64,000 bases of DNA from a virus: positions 1 through 64,000 of the IMG/VR virus record IMGVR_UViG_3300045988_087270. The stretch is one strand, 5' to 3'. A program made the position numbers and the translations under genes. The notes below the pieces were generated by a model. That model was not told where the DNA came from and did no database searches. It saw only the letters and a program-made list of their open reading frames with translations. Below, one piece after another: positions 8,968 through 56,983 of this stretch. How positions within the stretch are numbered: position 1 is the stretch's first letter; each line of letters begins with the position of its first letter.

Positions 8968-11001
8968 ATGGAATACTTAGATTTTAGAAATCTTGTTACA
9001 GAAGCATGTAATAAGATGATTAGAGAGAACAAACATCTTTTCATTCTTGACACTCAAAAAGAGTTTTTATGGATGGCTTATATGGAATCTTTCCCTGAAG
9101 GAGCTGTACGTCAAGAATTTAACTGTGTAAATTGTAAACATTTCATTACTCGCTATGGAGCATTAGTCTCTATAGATGAGAATTATAAAATACATTCTTA
9201 CTGGGAGGATGTTCATGCTGAGGGAATATTTGCTAAAGTTGTAGACAATATGTTACAAGTGCTTAAAAATACTAGAATTAGAAATGCATTTGTTACAGAA
9301 GAGACTACAATGGGTTGTAAATGTAATCAGCAGATACTACCTTCTAAAGAAGTAATTACTTGGAATCATTTTTATGCTACTCCTACAAGTAATTTAATTA
9401 TGGATAAGTCTCAGACTCCAACATTTCGTGCAGGTGCTAAATCTTCACATGATGTATGGGTAAGAACTTTATCTGAAATTAATTATAATTCTGTACAAGC
9501 AGTATTAGACTTAATTGCAGATGATAATCTCTATAGAGGTGATACTTATCTGCGCCAAGTAAGTGCTTTAAAGACTGCTCTTGATATAATAGAGAATAAA
9601 CATTTGGAAGGTTTTGAGTTAGATAATTATGCTTGGATATCCTCTTGTATACTTCCTGATGCTGTAACACATATACTTAATAGTGCTATAGGTCAGCTTC
9701 TTAAAGATATAACTGATACTAACAACATTGAAAGTTCAGTTAAGAAATTTGAAGCTATGGTTGCTCCTTATAATTATAAGAGACCTAAAGGTATTATCGC
9801 CAAAACTCAGGTAGAAAATGCTTATAAAACTGTAGTAGAACTTGGTTATGAAGATTCTTTAGAGAGACGTCATGCTAAAGTAGAAGATATATCTATTGAA
9901 GATGTTATCTTTGTAAATAGAGAAACTCGTAAGAGAATGTTAGGAGGATTTGATTCTCTTATGAACGAAACTTCTAATACTAGCAAAGCTGCTACAGACT
10001 TTGAGAAAACTGCTATTCCAACAACTATGGAAGAGTTTCTTAATAATATTGTTTCTAATGCTAGTAAGCTTGAATTATTCTTTGACAATAAGTTAAATAA
10101 TAATTTAGTAACTCTTACTGCTCCAGTTAATAAAGAAGCTCCTTCTATGTTTAAATGGAATAATGGTTTTGCTTGGGCATATGATGGTAATATCTCTGAT
10201 GCTATTAAACAACGTGTTAAAGAAGTAGGAGGTAAAGTAGATGGTTATATGAGAATTTCTCTCCATTGGTATAATTACGATGATTTGGATTTGCATATGG
10301 AAAGTCCTTATGGACACATTCATTATGGTTATAAAGCAAATCTTCTTGATGTAGATATGAATGCCTGTGGAGGTAGCGTTTCTGCAGAACGTGAGCTTCC
10401 TAAGAAGTTCTCTCGTAATGCTGTAGAAAATATTATTTTCTCAGGAATTCCTAAAGCAGGTAAATATAAAGTATTTGTTAACAACTTCGCTAAAGTTGAG
10501 AATATTGATTTAGGATTTGAAGTAGAGGTAGAACTCAATGGAATTATTCATACTTATGTGTACGATAAAGATGTTCCTGGTAGAGCCAATGTCCCAGTAT
10601 TAGACTTTACTTCTAATGGACGTGAGGTTATCTTTACTAAGGAGTATTTAGGTAGTACTACAGCATCTAAAGAAGTTTGGGGAGTAAAGACTCAGAATTC
10701 TGTTGAAGTATCTGCTATATGCTTATCTCCAAATTACTGGGGAAATAATAAAGTAGGTGCTAAGCACTATTTCTTTATGCTGAAGGATTGTAAGAATCCA
10801 GATGCTGTTCGTGGGTATTTTAATGAGTATCTTAAAGACGAACTCACTAAGAATCATAAGAGAGTATTTGAAGTATTAGCATCTAAGGCTTTAACTCCTT
10901 ATAATGATAATCAGATGAGCGGTCTAGGATTTATAGCTACATCTCGTAACCAAATTATGGTTAGAGTAGATTCAGGTAAAATTTATAAAGTAAACATTTA
11001 A
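8968..11001 (+). CDS. large hypothetical protein (677 aa)
   Basis: Long ORF immediately after the SPFH gene; N-terminal Cys cluster (CVNCKHF...CKC); no family recognised. Confidence 0.55.
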   Translation: MEYLDFRNLVTEACNKMIRENKHLFILDTQKEFLWMAYMESFPEGAVRQEFNCVNCKHFITRYGALVSIDENYKIHSYWEDVHAEGIFAKVVDNMLQVLKNTRIRNAFVTEETTMGCKCNQQILPSKEVITWNHFYATPTSNLIMDKSQTPTFRAGAKSSHDVWVRTLSEINYNSVQAVLDLIADDNLYRGDTYLRQVSALKTALDIIENKHLEGFELDNYAWISSCILPDAVTHILNSAIGQLLKDITDTNNIESSVKKFEAMVAPYNYKRPKGIIAKTQVENAYKTVVELGYEDSLERRHAKVEDISIEDVIFVNRETRKRMLGGFDSLMNETSNTSKAATDFEKTAIPTTMEEFLNNIVSNASKLELFFDNKLNNNLVTLTAPVNKEAPSMFKWNNGFAWAYDGNISDAIKQRVKEVGGKVDGYMRISLHWYNYDDLDLHMESPYGHIHYGYKANLLDVDMNACGGSVSAERELPKKFSRNAVENIIFSGIPKAGKYKVFVNNFAKVENIDLGFEVEVELNGIIHTYVYDKDVPGRANVPVLDFTSNGREVIFTKEYLGSTTASKEVWGVKTQNSVEVSAICLSPNYWGNNKVGAKHYFFMLKDCKNPDAVRGYFNEYLKDELTKNHKRVFEVLASKALTPYNDNQMSGLGFIATSRNQIMVRVDSGKIYKVNI

Positions 11002-12046: not shown

Positions 12047-12202
12047 ATGAAGAAATTACTTGTACTTAGTGTATTATTTACACTCTTAAGTTGTTCTACT
12101 GGTTCAAATAATTCAGTAAATTCAACTTCAAATGATTCTATTAATGTTGATACTACAGTAGTTGATACTACTGAAGTTGATTCAACTGTATGTCCTGATT
12201 AA
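12047..12202 (+). CDS. small lipoprotein (51 aa)
   Basis: MKKLLVLSVLFTLLSCS signal peptide with lipobox; Ser/Thr/Asp-rich tail; the stop lies inside hairpin gtcctgattaatcaggac. Confidence 0.4.
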   Translation: MKKLLVLSVLFTLLSCSTGSNNSVNSTSNDSINVDTTVVDTTEVDSTVCPD

Positions 12203-12213
12203 TCAGGACTTCC

Positions 12214-12294
12214 GTCTAGATAGCCAAGTGGTCAACGGCAGCAAGCTGTTAACTTGCCCCGAAAGGTTCCTAGGTTCGAATCCTAGTCTAGGCG
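12214..12294 (+). tRNA. type-II tRNA (Ser-like body, G73) with anticodon loop cuGUUaa
   Basis: Acceptor gtctaga/tctaggc, T-arm ctagg-ttcgaat-cctag, 3-bp D-stem with 11-nt D-loop, 12-nt variable arm, anticodon stem gcaag/cttgc; positions 34-36 read GUU. Confidence 0.55.
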
Positions 12295-12302
12295 CAATGA
12301 TA

Positions 12303-12365: not shown

Positions 12366-12442
12366 GGAGTATTAAGCCCTGTTGGTAAGGGAACTAGACT
12401 GTCACTCTAGTAAAACTAAGGGTTCGAGTCCCTTATATTCCG
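12366..12442 (+). tRNA. tRNA-Asp(GUC), non-canonical D-arm
   Basis: Acceptor ggagtat/atattcc (one G-U), anticodon stem ctaga/tctag with loop cuGUCac, T-arm aaggg-ttcgagt-ccctt; the D-stem pairs only ccc/ggg. Confidence 0.5.
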
Positions 12443-12587
12443 CAAATAATGGAGAGCACCTAGCGTTTAACTGGGTAGTTGTTAGAGGTAGCGGTGGCAA
12501 TCCACGAGTATGCCTGATAGCTCAATATATTATTAGAATATGGTCACGATAGTTTGCCCGTCTAATGCCATATTTGCCTTTATTTAA

Positions 12588-12659
12588 GCTTCAATAGCAC
12601 AGTGGTAGTGCAGCATTCTTGTAAAATGCAGGTCGTAGGTTCAAATCCTACTTGAAGCT
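12588..12659 (+). tRNA. tRNA-Thr(UGU)
   Basis: Canonical cloverleaf: acceptor gcttcaa/ttgaagc, D-stem gcac/gtgc, anticodon stem gcatt/aatgc with loop cuUGUaa, T-arm gtagg-ttcaaat-cctac. Confidence 0.8.
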
Positions 12660-12668
12660 CTCTAATAT

Positions 12669-12740
12669 CGTGGGTTGTAGCAGTGGTAGCTTGTTTGTCT
12701 CATAAGCAAACGGTCATCGGTTCGAGTCCGATACCCACAA
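12669..12740 (+). tRNA. tRNA-Met or Ile2 (CAU)
   Basis: Acceptor cgtgggt/acccaca (1:72 C-A mismatch), anticodon loop cuCAUaa, T-arm atcgg-ttcgagt-ccgat. Confidence 0.65.
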
Positions 12741-12746
12741 CAAAAT

Positions 12747-12830
12747 TGTCTAGTATGTGAAGTGGTCAAACATGACTGACTGTAAATCAGCTGCTATTTA
12801 GCTTCGGGAGTTCGAATCTCTCCTAGACAA
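12747..12830 (+). tRNA. tRNA-Tyr(GUA), type II
   Basis: Acceptor tgtctag/ctagaca, anticodon loop cuGUAaa, long variable arm gctatttagc, T-arm gggag-ttcgaat-ctctc. Confidence 0.7.
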
Positions 12831-13337: not shown

Positions 13338-13411
13338 GGGGCGTCGGCTCAAGTGGTCAGCACCTGCTTTGCACGCAGGCATTCTTAGGAGTTCGAATCT
13401 CCTACGCTCCA
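13338..13411 (+). tRNA. tRNA-Ala(UGC)
   Basis: Acceptor ggggcgt/acgctcc with the G3:U70 identity pair, anticodon stem cctgc/gcagg with loop uuUGCac, T-arm aggag-ttcgaat-ctcct. Confidence 0.8.
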
Positions 13412-37623: not shown

Positions 37624-39363
37624 ATGTTATTTATGGTAATAAAGAGAGACGGAAGTAAAGAAGAGTTTAACAGAAACAAAATTAGAGATGCTGTATTAAA
37701 AGCTTTTGGAGTTACCCAAAATTCTAATAAGACAATGGACGAAGATATTTACAGAGCAGTTACTGAAATAACTAATTCTGTAGTAGAGACTGAAGATCAA
37801 TCTATTGAAGATATTCAAGACCAAATTGAAGAACTTTTAATGGATTTAGGATATCACGACGTAGCTAAAAAATATATTCTATATCGTAAAGAACGTGAAG
37901 ATATTAGGAATCATGCTACTAGAGATATTGAATTTATTCATAATTTTGTAAAATCTGATAATACTGCTAATGCTACTATTGACGACAATAGTAATGTAGG
38001 AACTAAAGGTATTGGAGTATTAAACGCTGAAATACATAAAGTCGATAATAAACTTACTAATACAGAATGGTGGGAAAGTTTTGTAAAGAAGAGAGACCCT
38101 AACTTTAATATAAAAGTTATGAGGAATGATTTTAAAACTATTTTATATCCTCATGATTCATCTTCTCAAGTAGGAGAACCATATTGTATGGCAGCTTCTA
38201 TGTATCCTTTCTTGTTGTCTGGATTAGAGAAATTAGGAGGTAAATCAGCAGTTCCAAAGAACCTTGATTCACTCTGTGGTATTTATGTAAATCTAAACTT
38301 TGCATTAGCTTCTGAAATTAAAGGAGCAGTAGCTACTCCTGAGTTTCTGATGTATATGGATTATTTCTGTAGAAAAGAATGGGGAAATAATTATTATCTT
38401 AAACCAAGTGTAAGAATAACTACAGATTACTGTATAAAACAGAAAACTATTGGTAGTCAAATTGATCAATATTTCCAACAAGTAACTTATTCTATTAATC
38501 AAATAGCTGGAGCTAGAGGAATGCAGTCTCCATTTACAAATTTTTCATTCTTCGATAAATATTTCTTTGAAGGTATGTTTGGAGAATTTGTATTTCCAGA
38601 TGGAACAAAGCCAGAATGGAATTCTACTAATTGGTTACAAAGACGTTATTTACATTGGTTAAACCAAGAAAGATTAAAATGTATTTTAACATACCCTGTA
38701 TGTAGCTATGCTTGCTTAACAGATAAGGAAGGTAATTTTAAAGATTTAGATACTTTCCATTTTATATGCAATGAATATGCTCAAGGAAATTCTTTCTTTA
38801 CTTATTTATCTCGTAGCGTAGATAGTTTAAGTTCATGTTGTCGTTTACAGAATGCAGTACAGGAAAATACATTTAATACTACTAATGGTCAAATAGGTGT
38901 AATGACTGGTAGTAAGAATGTCATCACTCTTAATTTAAATAGAATTATTCAGGATTGGCAGCATACTTGGTCTGATTATAAAGACCATATTGATGTTAAT
39001 ACCAATAGATGCTGTTTCCCAGTAGATTGGATTACACATAAAGATTTCCAAGAAGGAATTAAGAAATATATAGAAAATATTCTTGAAAGAGTTTATTTGT
39101 ATCAATATGCTTATAACGACTTAATGCATTGGTGCAAAGACCATCATTTATATGCTGCTTATGATGCTGGTTTTATTAATCTTGATAAGCAGTATTTAAC
39201 TATTGGAATTAATGGCTTAAATCAGGCTGCTGAATACTTAGGAATGGAATGTAATAATAATATTTATTATAAGACATTCTGTAGATTAATATTCAGTACC
39301 ATAAAAGAGCAGAATAAGAAACATAAAACTAAAACAGCTCAATTTAATACTGAACAAGTGCCT
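37624..39363 (+). CDS. nrdD: anaerobic ribonucleoside-triphosphate reductase NrdD, exon 1
   Basis: N-terminal ATP-cone (VIKRDGSKEEFNRNKIRDAVLKAF); large class III RNR body; ends ...FNTEQVP. The ORF continues only 10 codons into the intron before a stop. Confidence 0.7.
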
Positions 39364-40625
39364 AGACGTGTGGGCACTATAAATCTCTTTTAATTGACTC
39401 GAAACTCCTTAAATTAAGGACAACGAGGGGCAAGCAATAATTATTATAATTATGGGCAGCCTGAGAGACTAAATAAAGAGAATTTTAAATAAATTTATTT
39501 AAAGTATATAATAGTCCGAACTCTATGGTAACATAGAGAGAGAAAATCGAAGAATTTTCTCCGTTAATAATATAATATACAAAATAATTTTGATTCCCGA
39601 GGATGAGGGTCTATAATTGTTCTATAACAGTAAATATAAAAATTATAGTTTATGGAACAAAAATTAGACATTTTAAAAGTAAGAAATTTAGTAAAAGAAA
39701 AAAGAGTAAGAAAAAGAATACCAGATGAATGTACCTGTGAAGTATGCGGAAGTACTAAAGGAGAAGGGAAACTTAGAAGATTCAATGATTATATAGTTTG
39801 TGAAAAACACTATGACCAATTAAATAAATATGGTAAAATCACCGATACTTCTAAAAGAAAACACAAAAAGCCTTTAGAAAAATGTAGTATTTGTGGAGGT
39901 TTAAAAATGGCTTCTTTTGAAGGAACCCCATATTGTCGTAAACATTATATCCAAATAACTAGGCATGGGGTTATTAGAGATAGAACTATCTATGATGCTA
40001 ACGAATATGTTATTCATGAAGATTATGTAGAAGTAAAATGTTTTGATAAAAATGGTAATTATAAAGCTAGCACCAAAGTTGACTTAGAATTTTTACCTGA
40101 TATTAAAAAACATAAAATCTATATAAGAAAAAGTGGTATTAAAGAATATGCAGCATTTTCAGGAATAGAAAATGAAGAAGGTTCTGGTAAAAAATACTTT
40201 GTACATAGATATATAATGCATCTTCACGATAAAAAATATAATATTGATGAAGTAGTAGACCATATCAATGGGGATTCTTTAGATAATAGGATTTCAAATC
40301 TTAGAGTTTGTACTCAAAAAGAAAATTCTTATAATAACAGAGGAACAAAATTAAATCAAAAAATTAAAGGAGTAAACTGGCTTAAAGTAAATAAAAAATG
40401 GACGGCTAGAATAATGTACAATTATAAAAGTATACATCTTGGAAATTATTTTACTTATGCTGAAGCTGTATTAGCTAGAATAAAAAAAGAACAAGAATTA
40501 TTTGGTGAATATGGTCCTAACAAAGATTTATATTATATTATTAATCATCCTTCGCCAATAGAGGAATTAAATAAAATATTAGAAATTCCTTCTATAGAAG
40601 GAGCGTAACAGAATGGCAGAAAGCG
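39364..40625 (+). mobile_element. group I intron 1 of nrdD with HNH-AP2 endonuclease ORF
   Basis: P1: exon gtgcct pairs with IGS gggcac at 39373-39378. R-like gagagacta, S-like aagtatataatagtccgaac, P9 hairpin ctatggtaacatagag. Ends ...gtaacagaatG. Splicing gives FNTEQVP|AESASVKLY. Confidence 0.7.
39652..40608 (+). CDS. HNH-AP2 homing endonuclease (intron-encoded)
   Basis: HNH_3 motif VDHINGDSLDNRISNLRVCTQKEN, AP2-like KGVNWLKVNKKWTARI...; paralog of 42035-42805. Confidence 0.65.
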   Translation: MEQKLDILKVRNLVKEKRVRKRIPDECTCEVCGSTKGEGKLRRFNDYIVCEKHYDQLNKYGKITDTSKRKHKKPLEKCSICGGLKMASFEGTPYCRKHYIQITRHGVIRDRTIYDANEYVIHEDYVEVKCFDKNGNYKASTKVDLEFLPDIKKHKIYIRKSGIKEYAAFSGIENEEGSGKKYFVHRYIMHLHDKKYNIDEVVDHINGDSLDNRISNLRVCTQKENSYNNRGTKLNQKIKGVNWLKVNKKWTARIMYNYKSIHLGNYFTYAEAVLARIKKEQELFGEYGPNKDLYYIINHPSPIEELNKILEIPSIEGA

Positions 40626-51593: not shown

Positions 51594-52799
51594 ATGACAA
51601 AAAAGGAAAAATTTATTACTCAAGCAATTGAAAAATTTGGTGGCAAATTTGATTATTCTAAAGTAACAGATATTAATAATAAAGAAATAGATAAAATTAC
51701 AATTATATGTCCTATACATGGTGAATTTGAGACTACTCCTAAGTCATTTTTAATATCTAAATATGGTTGTAAAAAATGTGCTAATCAACAAAAAGGAAAA
51801 CATTATCGAACAGATAAAAATAATTTAAGTTCTGTTGATACACATATTCCACATATAGAAAATCCTATTATATCAAAATCTTTAGTCGTGGGTACTGTAT
51901 ACTGTTTTATTAATAGTATTAATGGTAAAAAATATATTGGAGAAACAGTAAAAAAAGATTATACTGATAGATTTAATGAACATAGAAGTAAAAGTGAAAG
52001 AGGAGTAGTAACTTATTTCTATAATGCTATCAGAAAATATGGATGGGATGCTTTTAATAAATATATCCTATACCAAACTGAACCATATAAAGATACTGAA
52101 GAGAATAGAAAAAAATTAAATGATATTGTAAATAAAAAAGAGATTGAATTTATTAATAAATACAACACTACAAATCCTAATTTTGGCTATAATTTAACAA
52201 AAGGAGGAGACGGAGTTTTAGGTTACCATTTTTCTAAAGAAACCAGAGAAAAAATGAGTAAATCTCATCAAGGGGAAAAACATTGGAATTATGGTAAAAG
52301 AAATAAAGGTAAATCTAGAACAATTTTACAATTTGATTTAGATGGAAATTATATAGCAGAGTTTCCATCTATGGCAGAAATTACACGACAATTAGGATAT
52401 AGAGCTAATAATGTATGTAGATGTTGTAATAATTTAATAGATTCTTATATGGGATATATTTGGGTACGAAAAGATGATTATTATGAAGGCTATATTCAAA
52501 AATACAAATCAAGAGCAAAATGTAAATCTAATGATAAAGAAGTTTTACAATATACTTTTTTAGGAGATTATGTAGCTTCCTATATAAGTTGTGCAGAAGC
52601 AAAAAGAACTTTAAAAATGGGATATAGCCCTTCAGGAGCTGCTTCTGGAACTGATTTTTCAGCAGGAGGTTATATATGGATATATAAAAAAGATTTTACA
52701 GAAGATTTATTAAAAGAAAAATTAGAGCTTGTAAAAAGTAGCCGCAGTTATAAAAAAATTGTGAGTAATCTTAAACAATCTTGCTCTAATATACAATAA
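51594..52799 (+). CDS. GIY-YIG homing endonuclease (free-standing, Seg/I-TevI-like)
   Basis: GTVYCF...KKYIGET...RFNEH GIY-YIG core followed by NUMOD-like repeats (ETREKMSKSHQGEKHWNYGK). Confidence 0.6.
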   Translation: MTKKEKFITQAIEKFGGKFDYSKVTDINNKEIDKITIICPIHGEFETTPKSFLISKYGCKKCANQQKGKHYRTDKNNLSSVDTHIPHIENPIISKSLVVGTVYCFINSINGKKYIGETVKKDYTDRFNEHRSKSERGVVTYFYNAIRKYGWDAFNKYILYQTEPYKDTEENRKKLNDIVNKKEIEFINKYNTTNPNFGYNLTKGGDGVLGYHFSKETREKMSKSHQGEKHWNYGKRNKGKSRTILQFDLDGNYIAEFPSMAEITRQLGYRANNVCRCCNNLIDSYMGYIWVRKDDYYEGYIQKYKSRAKCKSNDKEVLQYTFLGDYVASYISCAEAKRTLKMGYSPSGAASGTDFSAGGYIWIYKKDFTEDLLKEKLELVKSSRSYKKIVSNLKQSCSNIQ

Positions 52800-54141: not shown

Positions 54142-54482
54142 TTTATTTTATTATAGCGGATACTAATTTCGGCTCTCATGTAGAACAAATATCTACTGAT
54201 TTTAATAAATTAAGAGAAAATTTTCCTGATGAGGTAATCTATACTACAGATTATATGAATGTAGATGATACTTTGTATAATATAATAGATTATTCCAATA
54301 TGCCATATAAACCTTATGATGGTACTGAGATAACTAATTGCTACTTATATCGTGATAAATTTTATGAGTGCGATGAAGATTTGCCAGAAGAATTAGATCC
54401 AGATGAATATATGTGTACCTATTATAGAACTTATACAAAAGGTATTCTAACTTCAACATGGCATAAAGATGGCTGGGTATAA
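54138..54482 (+). CDS. hypothetical protein
   Basis: 114 aa. Confidence 0.45.
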   Translation: MIYFIIADTNFGSHVEQISTDFNKLRENFPDEVIYTTDYMNVDDTLYNIIDYSNMPYKPYDGTEITNCYLYRDKFYECDEDLPEELDPDEYMCTYYRTYTKGILTSTWHKDGWV

Positions 54483-55293
54483 TTTAATCACAGACGATAG
54501 TGAAGCATTACAAGCTTATTTAAATAACATTACTCATTCTACTCCACTATCTTTAGAAGAAGAAAAAGAATGTGCTGATACTGGAAATTGGGAGAAATTA
54601 GTAAATGCTAATTTAAAGTTTGTAGTAACTGTAGCTAAAAAGTTTCAGAATAAAGGACTACCTTTATCTGATCTAATAGCTGAAGGAAATGTAGGTCTTA
54701 TTCATGCTAGCCACTTATATAAAAGTGAATATAATGTTAAATTTATAACTTATGCTGTATGGCATATAAATGAAGCTATTCGTAGAGCTATTCATTATAA
54801 AGCAGATACTGTTAGAGTTCCTGTAAGTCAAAAACTTACTTATAACAAAGCTGCTAAAGTTATAAATAAATATTGGCAAACTGAAGATAGACCTCCATCA
54901 GATGAAGAGTTAGAAGAAGCTACTGGTAAAACTATGAAACAAATTAATGGAGCTATAAATGCTAAAAAAATATGTATGTCTTTAGACACTCCATTAGGTA
55001 GTAATGATGATGACGGAGATTCTACTTTAGTAGATATTGTTAAAAATAATAATAGTCCTTTAGCTGACAATGATATAGAACAGTCTTATAAAACAAAAGT
55101 TATAAATAAAGTTTTAAATGGATTATCCAATAAGGAACATGATATAATAATGTTATGTTATGGATTTACTGGTCAGGAATATACTCCTGAGCTTATATCT
55201 CCTTTATTTGGATGTACGCCAGAACGTATAAGACAAATTAGAAAAGAGGCAATTAAAAAATTAAGAAAGAAAAAAATTCTTAAAAATGTTTAA
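54469..55293 (+). CDS. sigma-70 family RNA polymerase sigma factor
   Basis: Region 2 (KFQNKGLPLSDLIAEGNVGLIHA...FITYAVWHINEAIRRAI) and region 4 HTH (ISPLFGCTPERIRQIRKEAIKKLR). Confidence 0.65.
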   Translation: MAGYNLITDDSEALQAYLNNITHSTPLSLEEEKECADTGNWEKLVNANLKFVVTVAKKFQNKGLPLSDLIAEGNVGLIHASHLYKSEYNVKFITYAVWHINEAIRRAIHYKADTVRVPVSQKLTYNKAAKVINKYWQTEDRPPSDEELEEATGKTMKQINGAINAKKICMSLDTPLGSNDDDGDSTLVDIVKNNNSPLADNDIEQSYKTKVINKVLNGLSNKEHDIIMLCYGFTGQEYTPELISPLFGCTPERIRQIRKEAIKKLRKKKILKNV

Positions 55294-56711
55294 ATGATTT
55301 ATTTAGTTACCAAAGCTAAAACTTTATTTAAATCTTCTAAATATGAATGTATTTCCATAGAGAAAAGTAAAGAAATTATTAATTCTATGGGAAAAATTAG
55401 AGGGTTAGATACTGAAACTAGGGGATTAAATCCTCATACTAAAGCATTATTAACTGTTCAGATAGGTACTAAAGAAAATCAAGTAGTAATTGATTGTACT
55501 ACTATAAATATTTTGGAATATAAAAATATATTAGAAGATTCCGATATTTTATACATCTTAGCTAATGCTAAATTTGATACCCAATTCTTCTTTAAACATA
55601 ATATTATATTATCTAAAGTATGGGATGTAATGTTAGCTGAAAAAGTTAGATATTTGGGATATCCTAAAGGTAGTTTTCATGCTGACTTACAGACCCTTGA
55701 ATATAAGTATCTTAATAAACATATGGATAAAACTGTTAGGGGTAAAATTACTAAAGTTGGTCTAATTGAAGAAGTAATAGTTTATGCAGCTAATGATGTA
55801 GTAGATTTGGAAGATTTAATGAATGCTCAAATAAAAGCTTTAGAAAAAGAAGATTTGGTAAAGGCAGTACAATTAGAGAATAGATTTGTTATTCCATTGG
55901 CTTATATGGAATGGTGCGGAGTAAAATTAAACGTAGAAAAATGGAAAGCTAAAATGGTAAAAGATGCTAAACGTTTAAAAATTGCTCTAAATAAATTAAA
56001 TGATTGGGTAATAGAACATTATGGAAATGACTCTAGATTTACTAAGGTAGATTTACAAGGAGATTTATTTTCAGGATTTAATACTGACCCACAGTGTACT
56101 ATAAATTGGAATAGTGGAACTCAAGTAATTCCATTATTTAAAGCTATTGGAATAAATACTTCTACTATAGATAGTAAAACAAAGAAATTAAAAGATTCTG
56201 TAGATGCTAAATTATTAAAGCCTCAAGCTAAGGATTTTGAAATTCTTCCTATTTATCTAGATTATAAGGAAGCTCAAAAAGTATGTTCTACTTATGGACA
56301 AAACTGGTTAGACCAAATAAATCCAGAAACTGGTAGAGTATATACTAAGTTTAATCAGTTAGGTACTAATACTGCTAGAATATCTAGTGGCGGAAAAGAT
56401 AAAAATGCTAAAATAGAATATGTAAATTTTCTCAATCTTCCAGCAGACCCAGAAACTAGAAGTTGTTTTATTGCAGAGAAAGGTAATTCTTGGATTTCAA
56501 TAGACTACTCAGGGCAAGAAAGTTTCATTATGGCTTCTATTTCTAATGATAAAGCTTTAATACATGAATTAATGGAGGGAAGTGGGGATTTACACTCTCT
56601 AACTGCTTATATGAGTTATCCTGATCAAATACCAAGAGATACAAAAATAACAGAAATTAAAGAAAAATATCACCATCTTAGACAAGAAGCTAAAGGCATA
56701 GAATTTGCCAT
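55294..56711 (+). CDS. family A DNA polymerase, exon 1
   Basis: 3'-5' exo motifs (LDTETRGL, YAANDV), pol motif A IDYSGQESF, DLHSLTA, motif B start RQEAKGIEFAI; the ORF stops 2 codons into the intron. Confidence 0.7.
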
Positions 56712-56983
56712 TAATCCTTAAATTATTACAATTTTGTGGCACTCTATGGAAACATAGAGAATAAAAAATTGGGTGAATTGCAGGAACTTAAGGAAAATCT
56801 GCAGCCAAGCCAACCTTTAACAAAGTTGGAAGGTTCAACGACTAACTCTTGAAACTTCGTAAGAAGAATATAATAGAGACACGAGCGCCCAACACCTAAA
56901 CTATAAAGTAAGGTGATGAAATAGTCTAGCCTATATGGTAACATATAGAGCCTTGGATAAAGAGCCAAGGGTTAATACACGCG
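56712..56983 (+). mobile_element. ORF-less group I intron (td/IA2-like) in polA
   Basis: P1: exon gccat pairs with IGS gtggc at 56736-56740. P gaattgcagg, Q aatctgcagccaag, R gttcaacgactaac, S aaatagtctagcc, P9 hairpin ctatatggtaacatatag. Ends in G. Splicing gives AKGIEFAI|NYGGDF. Confidence 0.75.

Follow-up and report, generated by a model that had tools for sequence, protein, structure and literature searches.

The stretch analysed here, referred to below as the window, comprises 64,000 nucleotides of viral DNA (IMG/VR virus record IMGVR_UViG_3300045988_087270, positions 1 to 64,000; all coordinates are those of the whole window unless a locus is named), and carries on its plus strand, at 12214-12294, an 81-nt tRNA gene that combines the anticodon GUU with a class II-type cloverleaf, i.e. 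one with a long variable arm (V arm). This gene, called tRNA(GUU) hereafter, is a real, conserved phage tRNA gene under selection as a tRNA. Judged by its sequence, its body (D arm, A26, V arm and T loop) is of the class II tRNA-Tyr type and not of the Ser type, and the gene is probably a functional phage tRNA-Asn that sits on a tRNA-Tyr core by way of a Tyr-to-Asn identity switch. An earlier note on this DNA had described it as a chimeric-looking tRNA with a Ser-type body, able in principle to insert Ser at AAU and AAC (AAY) codons.

ARAGORN calls tRNA-Asn(GTT) at 12214-12295 with a score of 119.4, and the Rfam tRNA model RF00005 matches 12214-12294 on the plus strand in the same register, with 51.8 bits (E=1.5e-9, gathering score 29); the 7-bp acceptor stem and the D, anticodon and T arms expected of an Rfam tRNA are all present, at a score above gathering. 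Neither program gives another register or isotype for 12214-12294. In this the earlier note was right, having found no alternative fold with a canonical anticodon, and the ARAGORN run it had proposed as a check returned Asn(GTT), with no different isotype. The long variable region, G73, 3-bp D stem and cuGUUaa loop it had listed are likewise seen by ARAGORN, Rfam and direct reading of the sequence, and the combination of a V-arm scaffold with an Asn anticodon is borne out by both tools.

The acceptor stem pairs 12214-12220 with 12287-12293 in 7 bp, including U2.G71, and the positions U8, A9 and A26 are present. The D arm (12223-12239) has, in class II style, a 3-bp stem GCC/GGC and an 11-nt loop, AAGUGGUCAAC, with A13 and C22 left unpaired. 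The anticodon stem GCAAG/CUUGC carries the loop CUGUUAA, with the anticodon GTT (Asn; codons AAU/AAC) at 12248-12250, and is followed at 12258-12269 by the 12-nt V arm CCCGAAAGGUUC, laid out as one unpaired nucleotide, two C-G pairs closing GAAA, UU and then C48. The T arm is CUAGG-UUCGAAU-CCUAG, the acceptor/T geometry is the standard 7/5, and the gene ends at the discriminator G73 (12294) with no encoded CCA. Thermodynamic folding of the bare sequence recovered the acceptor and T arms only (z = -1.9), hence the structure was judged by covariation. A shifted register, an intron and stop-codon recoding were also considered and rejected; stop-codon usage in the window is ordinary (TAA 43, TGA 20, TAG 8) and, together with the density of open reading frames (ORFs), fits the standard code.

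The gene occurs, always with GTT, in about 28 related IMG/VR contigs, and a search by anticodon loop plus V arm retrieved the same tRNA from more distant phages (L207 and L354-L360, where L-numbers denote loci of our IMG/VR and phage comparison set). Covariation was evaluated on 13 distinct tRNA(GUU) sequences, drawn from several phage lineages and different samples, against the cloverleaf plus the 2-bp V stem. Standard pairs fill 99.3% of the cells, and both sides have changed in 12 of the 22 pairs, across the acceptor, D, anticodon and T stems; none of 500 shuffles reached the observed pairing and covariation values, and slid controls were only 19-46% paired. No variation is seen in the anticodon (13/13), G73, U8, A9, A26, the T loop, the entire V arm or the greater part of the D loop, nor, across the lineages, at any position of tertiary interaction. 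Pairing, covariation and invariant positions together rule out a pseudogene or a chance cloverleaf. That the gene is a decaying or non-functional product of tRNA-gene recombination is extremely unlikely: the array around it does appear recombinogenic, two relatives (L014 and L025) hold hybrid genes with mismatched stems, and two of the 13 alleles have an A10/C25 mismatch, yet the cloverleaf is perfect, compensatory changes run through four helices and the tertiary positions are kept from lineage to lineage.

Concerning the body of the tRNA, variable-region lengths were compared among ca. 1,600 ARAGORN-parsed phage tRNAs from loci L001-L213, a sample biased towards loci picked for long-arm Asn. 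The variable region measures 15-23 nt in 75 of 77 phage tRNA-Ser and 12 nt in none of them, 10-20 nt in tRNA-Tyr (mode 12-14) and mostly 12-16 nt in tRNA-Leu. The same survey shows about a third of phage tRNA-Leu with a short variable region of 4-6 nt, and variable regions of at least 10 nt in a minority of phage tRNA-Cys (13/35), Met, Thr, Ile, Lys, Asp and His. As for layout, the two U residues 3' of the V stem, unpaired in tRNA(GUU) and paired in tRNA-Ser, are those of tRNA-Tyr and match the tRNA-Tyr of the phage itself; E. coli tRNA-Tyr has the same V-arm layout. Hence tRNA(GUU) has the core of a class II tRNA-Tyr (V arm of about 11-14 nt, 2-3 bp, two unpaired nucleotides before N48), while its 12 nt, 2 bp and UU differ from the bacterial tRNA-Ser V arm (about 15 nt or more, a 4-7-bp stem, at most one unpaired 3' nucleotide), and its 12-nt region and 3-bp D stem from canonical class I tRNA-Asn (4-5-nt variable loop, 4-bp D stem).

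The likeness extends to the nucleotides. The V arm CCCGAAAGGUUC is the same as that of phage tRNA-Tyr(GUA), the D loop AAGUGGUCAAC is identical in the phage tRNA-Tyr L346 and in the Tyr allele of L002, and the tRNA-Tyr of the phage itself has GUCUAG, UA and the D loop AAGUGGUCAA in common with tRNA(GUU). The best long-coverage blastn matches among annotated phage tRNAs are the tRNA-Tyr of Felix O1-like phages, and the V arm CCCGAAAGGUU is present in the tRNA-Tyr of Erwinia phage phiEa21-4 (EU710883 22655-22737); a blastn search of all complete E. coli genomes found nothing that matches tRNA(GUU). Scanning IMG/VR with CTGTAAA-N5-CCCGAAAGGTT yielded 20 loci, in 18 of which ARAGORN finds a tRNA-Tyr(GUA) with this V arm, every one with A73 and an encoded CCA, and scanning with CTGTTAA plus the same V arm yielded another 20 loci, all tRNA(GUU) with G73. 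After removal of duplicates, the V arm CCCGAAAGGUU(C) is shared by 13 distinct tRNA(GUU) and 10 distinct tRNA-Tyr(GUA) genes, and among them U36 goes with G73 in 13/13 and A36 with A73 in 10/10. In an ungapped alignment with the tRNA-Tyr L346, 61 of 81 positions are identical and 18 of the differences lie in stems; among unpaired positions, just 36 (A to U) and 73 (A to G) differ.

Profile hidden Markov models made from independent phage tRNAs, from which the clade of the window was excluded and whose controls sort correctly, give tRNA(GUU) 23.5 bits for Tyr (14.9 with the anticodon masked), 20.5 for class I Asn (12.8 masked), 11.7 for Ser (8.2 masked) and 4.8 for Leu (4.8 masked). Global pairwise identity was dropped as evidence of type: it barely separates Tyr from the other tRNAs of the clade, so that a Tyr origin is argued from the V arm and from the positions outside the stems.

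In bacteria, Asn identity consists of the three anticodon bases and G73, a set that can be transplanted into another tRNA (PMC9976931), and tRNA(GUU) has G34, U35, U36 and G73 in 13/13 sequences. Compared with tRNA-Tyr it keeps G34 and U35 of the anticodon GUA, has U in place of A36, and bears G73 where every Tyr gene on the same scaffold has A73. Bacterial tyrosyl-tRNA synthetase (TyrRS) depends critically on A73 and U35 and makes use of the long variable region as well (PMC9976931, PMC6310243), and G73 counts among the antideterminants that act against TyrRS and leucyl-tRNA synthetase (PMC9976931). Since 36 and 73 are the positions that separate the GUU from the GUA genes, the switch should turn TyrRS off and asparaginyl-tRNA synthetase (AsnRS) on. 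There is only a small chance that Tyr identity was kept, or became dual Tyr/Asn, so that some Tyr enters at Asn codons: the whole Tyr-type core is retained with G34, U35 and the V arm, which are determinants of bacterial TyrRS (PMC9976931, PMC6310243), yet A73 is a major Tyr determinant that all 13 GUU genes lack, having G73, and all 10 GUA genes possess, and selection for a clean switch would be expected to leave just so strict a coupling.

Serine is less probable still. In the reading of the earlier note, seryl-tRNA synthetase (SerRS) would charge tRNA(GUU) through its V arm and G73 and deliver Ser to AAU/AAC, which we consider very unlikely. SerRS does ignore the anticodon, and G73, G1-C72, C11-G24 and the 3-bp D stem are common to bacterial tRNA-Ser (PMC9976931); G73, however, is also the discriminator of tRNA-Asn (PMC9976931), and is therefore no specific pointer to Ser, as had been supposed. 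Of the features conserved in bacterial tRNA-Ser, which include G1-C72 and G2-C71 (PMC9976931), tRNA(GUU) has G73 and G1-C72 and lacks G2-C71, the pair 2-71 being C-G, U.G or U-A and in 0/13 sequences G-C. C11-G24 is C-G in 7/13, the window included, and U-A in 6/13, and so is not conserved in the set.

The 12-nt region with its 2-bp stem and two unpaired U, set against the 15-23 nt of nearly all phage tRNA-Ser, is a Tyr-type layout, and the Ser profile scores lowest of Tyr, Asn and Ser; the description of the body as Ser-type thus fails on the V arm, on the pair 2-71 and on the profiles alike. The V stem of tRNA-Tyr, in the work of Himeno et al. 1990, reportedly had to be lengthened for Ser charging, according to secondary sources. 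A yeast tRNA-Ser no longer functioned once one base pair of its V arm had been deleted (PMC6827378), and, as recognition by SerRS is governed by how long the V arm is and how it is oriented, a 2-bp arm would make a poor substrate. Finally, AAY codons stand at conserved Asn positions and an ordinary class I tRNA-Asn takes the place of the gene in one relative (see below), both of which speak against Ser at AAY codons. The earlier note had named, as something that would speak against its view, the same tRNA being common and annotated as Asn in related phages, and this is essentially the situation found: ARAGORN calls Asn in all relatives, and hundreds of GenBank phage records annotate long-V-arm GUU genes as tRNA-Asn.

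Several points weigh against a tRNA-Asn on a Tyr core. The gap between the Tyr and the class I Asn profile is small, with Ser clearly below both, and global identity to the tRNA-Tyr of the phage itself is 0.64-0.70, as against 0.60-0.68 for its Ala, Thr, Gly and Asp tRNAs. G73, C11-G24 and G1-C72 are Ser features too. Class IIb synthetases approach the tRNA from the variable-loop side, and the V arm might hinder AsnRS. Residual tyrosylation is conceivable with G34, U35 and the V arm, all used by bacterial TyrRS, still in place. Moreover, G1-C72 is invariant, so that the U1-A72 pair expected for the indirect route through non-discriminating aspartyl-tRNA synthetase (ND-AspRS) and GatCAB is absent; G1-C72 is an antideterminant of amidation in that route, which is relevant only if the host lacks AsnRS (PMC9976931). 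It is accordingly conceivable, though rather improbable, that partial charging by TyrRS or SerRS, or with Asp by ND-AspRS that could not be amidated, puts Tyr, Ser or Asp at AAY codons, or that the tRNA stays uncharged as a nuclease decoy.

A tRNA-Asn on a tRNA-Tyr core would have arisen and would work as follows. The change of A36 to U would turn the anticodon GUA into GUU, with A73 to G alongside, and the acceptor ends of an ordinary tRNA-Asn may have been recombined in as well. The gene would be transcribed with the Asn-Asp-Thr-Met-Tyr-Ala array and processed, with CCA added by host enzymes, and the product would be charged by the host AsnRS, because this enzyme recognises its tRNA by the anticodon and by G73, at the two extremities of the L, and not by the core. 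The charged tRNA would then decode as Asn the AAU/AAC codons that are very abundant in this phage of 29% GC. Charging with asparagine is what the identity positions make most likely, and we infer also that the gene is expressed and of benefit to the phage. The demand is seen in the codon usage of the window, with 58.7 AAT and 8.7 AAC per 1000 codons and Asn making up 6.7% of residues; the use of TAT and GAT is comparably high, in keeping with the presence of tRNAs for Tyr and Asp in the array. AAY codons fall on conserved Asn positions shared with the reductase NrdD of T. maritima, in the motifs TIDxNxNV, TYSxNQ, SPxTNF and FNxEQVP.

The slot of the gene in relatives points to its being equivalent in function to an ordinary tRNA-Asn, and gives further information about its history. 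At L020:3250-3322 a canonical 73-nt class I tRNA-Asn occupies the same slot, between the same flanks, as the V-arm tRNA of the window, next to a 677-aa protein 93% identical to that of the window, and the two alleles agree in their acceptor-stem ends (GYCUAGR … GGC-G73). Contigs of the clade carry either the V-arm form or the class I tRNA-Asn, never both, and in the more distant L356-L360 the V-arm form is the sole tRNA-Asn in arrays covering up to eleven amino acids. From sequence comparison, L020 and the window look like a cassette-like allelic replacement inside the acceptor-stem ends. Two further relatives contain hybrids, at L014:9249-9333 of a V-arm Asn 5' part with a Tyr 3' part, joined at the shared AAGTGGTCAA, and at L025:9248-9322 of a class I Asn 5' part with a Tyr 3' part, joined at the shared GGGAGTTCGA; in both the stems are mismatched and the intervening Asp, Thr and Met genes are lost, and they could be products of tRNA-gene recombination or assembly artefacts. 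The tRNA-Tyr alleles of the clade are themselves mosaic in the anticodon stem. The array thus appears to be recombinogenic, and "chimeric-looking" was a fair description in so far as the gene is a mosaic, since its acceptor ends are like those of the tRNA-Asn of the clade and its core is class II; what does not stand is the assignment of that core to Ser instead of Tyr. The gene may have originated from a duplicated tRNA-Tyr that underwent point changes, from recombination, or from the two combined.

Long-V-arm tRNA(GUU) genes are not restricted to this clade. IMG/VR was scanned for GUU anticodon loops that have, at class II distance downstream, a standard T arm, a pattern that selects long arms and therefore biases the frequencies. 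Among the matches listed there are at least 113 distinct tRNA(GUU) with variable regions of 10-24 nt, falling into at least 57 clusters at 80% identity, and their cores are Asn-like, Tyr-like and Ser-like. Among 102 listed genes parsed by motif, G73 is present in 92 and U1-A72, the usual pair of bacterial tRNA-Asn, in 62. The tRNA of the window fits this set (GUU, variable region of at least 10 nt, mostly G73, phage array) as its Tyr-scaffold variant. In 34 of 110 listed loci (L093-L211) a long-arm and a normal-length tRNA(GUU) occur together, often in tandem, 80-100 nt apart, which suggests that the two forms are not redundant.

One long-arm family matches 533 GenBank phage records, among them Proteus phage PM135, T5-like Salmonella and Escherichia phages and Klebsiella T4-like phages, and is tRNA-Asn wherever it is annotated. 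A second family, in Escherichia phage 4MG and Cronobacter phage GAP31, is annotated as tRNA-Asn as well; T5 itself has a normal tRNA-Asn. The same pattern applied to 596 Gb of cellular genomes gave mostly pattern noise, with 13 long-arm GUU tRNAs among the first 120 matches, mostly in dense tRNA arrays or archaeal; three are archaeal genes with an intron-looking insertion just 3' of the anticodon. A literature search found no paper describing a V-arm tRNA-Asn in phages, and reviews limit the long variable arm to tRNA-Ser, tRNA-Leu, bacterial tRNA-Tyr and tRNA-Sec (PMC7609411, PMC4033280). V-arm tRNA-Asn is hence recurrent, seen mainly in phages and already labelled Asn by databases.

Individual members of the survey differ in type. 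The 86-nt gene of 4MG, a cultured E. coli phage (L213:291-376; KF550303 61200-61285), is annotated as tRNA-Asn and has nearly the acceptor of T5 tRNA-Asn (GGUUCUU/AGGAACC, G73, CCA) with a Ser-like D arm and a 17-nt variable region; its top profile is Ser, at 25.1 bits. At L109:6795-6883 (IMGVR_UViG_3300021387_000463) lies a Ser-type tRNA(GUU) whose V stem has 6 bp with one unpaired nucleotide on each side, together with G73, G1-C72, a GCC/GGC D stem and the D loop GAGUGGUUUAA; it scores 36.1 bits with the Ser profile (32.3 with the anticodon masked) and 17.0 with class I Asn, and a normal tRNA-Asn stands 287 nt away. Other Ser-type tRNA(GUU) are found at L096, L117, L151 and L169. By their sequences, genes of the L109 type would be better candidates than the tRNA of the window for Ser at AAY codons.

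The recurrence bears on a further explanation, compatible with a tRNA-Asn on a Tyr core, in which the class II core was kept or selected against host tRNA-targeting nucleases, as a poor substrate or a decoy. Such a tRNA would let AAY translation continue once the host tRNA-Asn is cleaved, and Asn(GUU) and Thr(UGU) are both in the array of the window; the many origins of the long-arm form, with three core types, its rarity in cellular genomes outside dense tRNA arrays, and the loci where it stands side by side with the normal form are all in its favour. Against it, the specificity of AriB has been mapped to the anticodon stem-loop and not to the V region, the V arm could be a neutral legacy of a Tyr ancestor, and the survey pattern picked long arms in the first place. 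We hold this explanation tentatively, as plausible but not likely. The V arm could be neutral or could help to evade tRNA-cleaving defence systems; the repeated origin and the side-by-side loci suggest a function.

Within the window, ARAGORN places six tRNA genes in the interval from 12.2 to 13.4 kb, all on the plus strand and all matched by the Rfam tRNA model, in the order Asn(GTT), Asp(GTC), Thr(TGT), Met(CAT), Tyr(GTA) and Ala(TGC). The second of them, tRNA-Asp(GUC) at 12367-12441 (12366-12443, 77 nt, in ARAGORN), has a variable region enlarged to about 8 nt, scores weakly with Rfam (36.9 bits) and is conserved across the clade; the tRNA-Gly(UCC) of relatives measures 78 nt. It is followed by tRNA-Thr(UGU) at 12588-12659, tRNA-Met(CAU) at 12669-12740, the class II tRNA-Tyr (GUA, A73) at 12747-12830 and tRNA-Ala(UGC), last of the array in the window, at 13338-13411. 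The tRNA-Tyr has U1-A72 in place of the G1-C72 that is usual in its bacterial counterparts, and in the window it also has an A27/C43 mismatch; its anticodon stem varies between close relatives and is non-complementary in L001, as if mosaic. A sub-threshold Rfam match to the Plastid-ycf2 5' untranslated region RNA on the minus strand at 12588-12660 (38.2 bits, gathering score 65.7), opposite tRNA-Thr, is almost certainly a tRNA-derived chance match. ARAGORN predicts no transfer-messenger RNA (tmRNA) in the window, and predicts one in a close relative (L012:10155-10484), with the tag ARVINMTPAYQAAA.

The tRNA region is 94% identical to MT835492, a 121.6-kb sequence obtained from human faeces that is entered as "Bacteriophage sp." and bears no annotation. 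GC content in the window is 28-33%, and all ORFs of 150 aa or longer lie on the plus strand. A small plus-strand ORF with a lipoprotein-like signal (…LLSC…), at 12047-12202, ends 12 nt upstream of tRNA(GUU), in a flank conserved in relatives. The neighbouring ORFs also include an SPFH/flotillin-like protein, an AAA protein and the conserved 677-aa protein, and scans of these neighbours with Pfam and PHROGs gave nothing tRNA-related. The 677-aa protein (8968-11001), just upstream of the array, belongs to PHROG 1735 (unknown function) with no Pfam match, and is conserved, with 33-39% identity, among numerous large phages of diverse environments.

Replication genes of the window comprise helicases, a DNA polymerase, a ligase, an NrdD-like reductase and homing endonucleases. 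In the NrdD-like ORF (37624-39393), the alignment with T. maritima NrdD ends at the last residues of the ORF, equivalent to residue 505 of 651; the glycyl-radical part at the C-terminus, absent from it, could be in the next ORF (39652-40608), and the gene may be split or interrupted. A homing endonuclease ORF of the GIY-YIG/HNH type (51594-52799) lies between the ligase-like and polymerase-like genes, and the polymerase region (54469-56721) consists of two adjacent ORFs.

If the assignment is right, tRNA(GUU) represents a naturally occurring tRNA-Asn with a class II scaffold, outside the restriction of the V arm given in textbooks and reviews, and the Asn identity set can probably be carried over to a class II core. 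The genes would also provide an unusually clean comparative record of an identity switch, in which 36 and 73 change together and the other unpaired nucleotides of the Tyr scaffold are kept. In practical terms, pipelines that check isotypes will flag such genes, and the scaffold explains why. Phage tRNA arrays come into view as places of tRNA-gene recombination and remoulding, and the recurrence of the V-arm form in many lineages, including cultured E. coli, Salmonella and Klebsiella phages, often beside a normal tRNA-Asn, makes the reason for the arm directly testable.

Among known tRNAs, the closest to that of the window is class II tRNA-Tyr (L346, phiEa21-4), with which it agrees in U8-A9, the 3-bp D stem, the 11-nt D loop, A26, the CUGUxAA loop, the V arm CCCGAAAGGUU(C), the T loop and total length, and from which it differs in U36 instead of A36, G73 instead of A73, the lack of an encoded CCA and the sequences of the stems. 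With class I tRNA-Asn (L020, T5) it shares the CUGUUAA loop, G73, G1-C72 and most of the acceptor stem, whereas the D stem there has 4 bp, the D loop is short and the variable loop has 5 nt, against 3 bp, 11 nt and 12 nt here. Bacterial tRNA-Ser is like it in G73, G1-C72, C11-G24 and the 3-bp D stem, and unlike it in a V stem of at least 5 bp, against 2 bp plus UU, and in G-C at 2-71. The long-V-arm tRNA-Asn of cultured phages resemble it in GUU, G73 and their place in a phage array, with a variable region of 13-17 nt, but are unrelated in sequence, those of the PM135 type having an Asn-like 4-bp D arm and an inserted hairpin and those of the 4MG type a Ser-like D arm.

Outside phages, the nev-tRNAs of nematodes and the allo-tRNAs of bacteria also combine a V arm with a class I anticodon (PMC3333845, PMC4033280, PMC5389517). 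They keep Leu or Ser identity and mistranslate, and the allo-tRNAs have 8/4 or 9/3 geometry instead of 7/5; in the tRNA of the window, by contrast, the discriminator has changed along with the anticodon, and positions 34-36 and 73 agree on Asn. Alloacceptor remolding, known from mitochondria and Drosophila and exemplified by the yeast mitochondrial tRNA-Thr derived from tRNA-His, likewise leaves a tRNA whose body is nearer to another acceptor family (PMC4783518, PMC3923123, PMC3113583). What would set the present case apart from these is its location in phage arrays, the crossing from class II to class I, and a switch that can be traced to positions 36 and 73.

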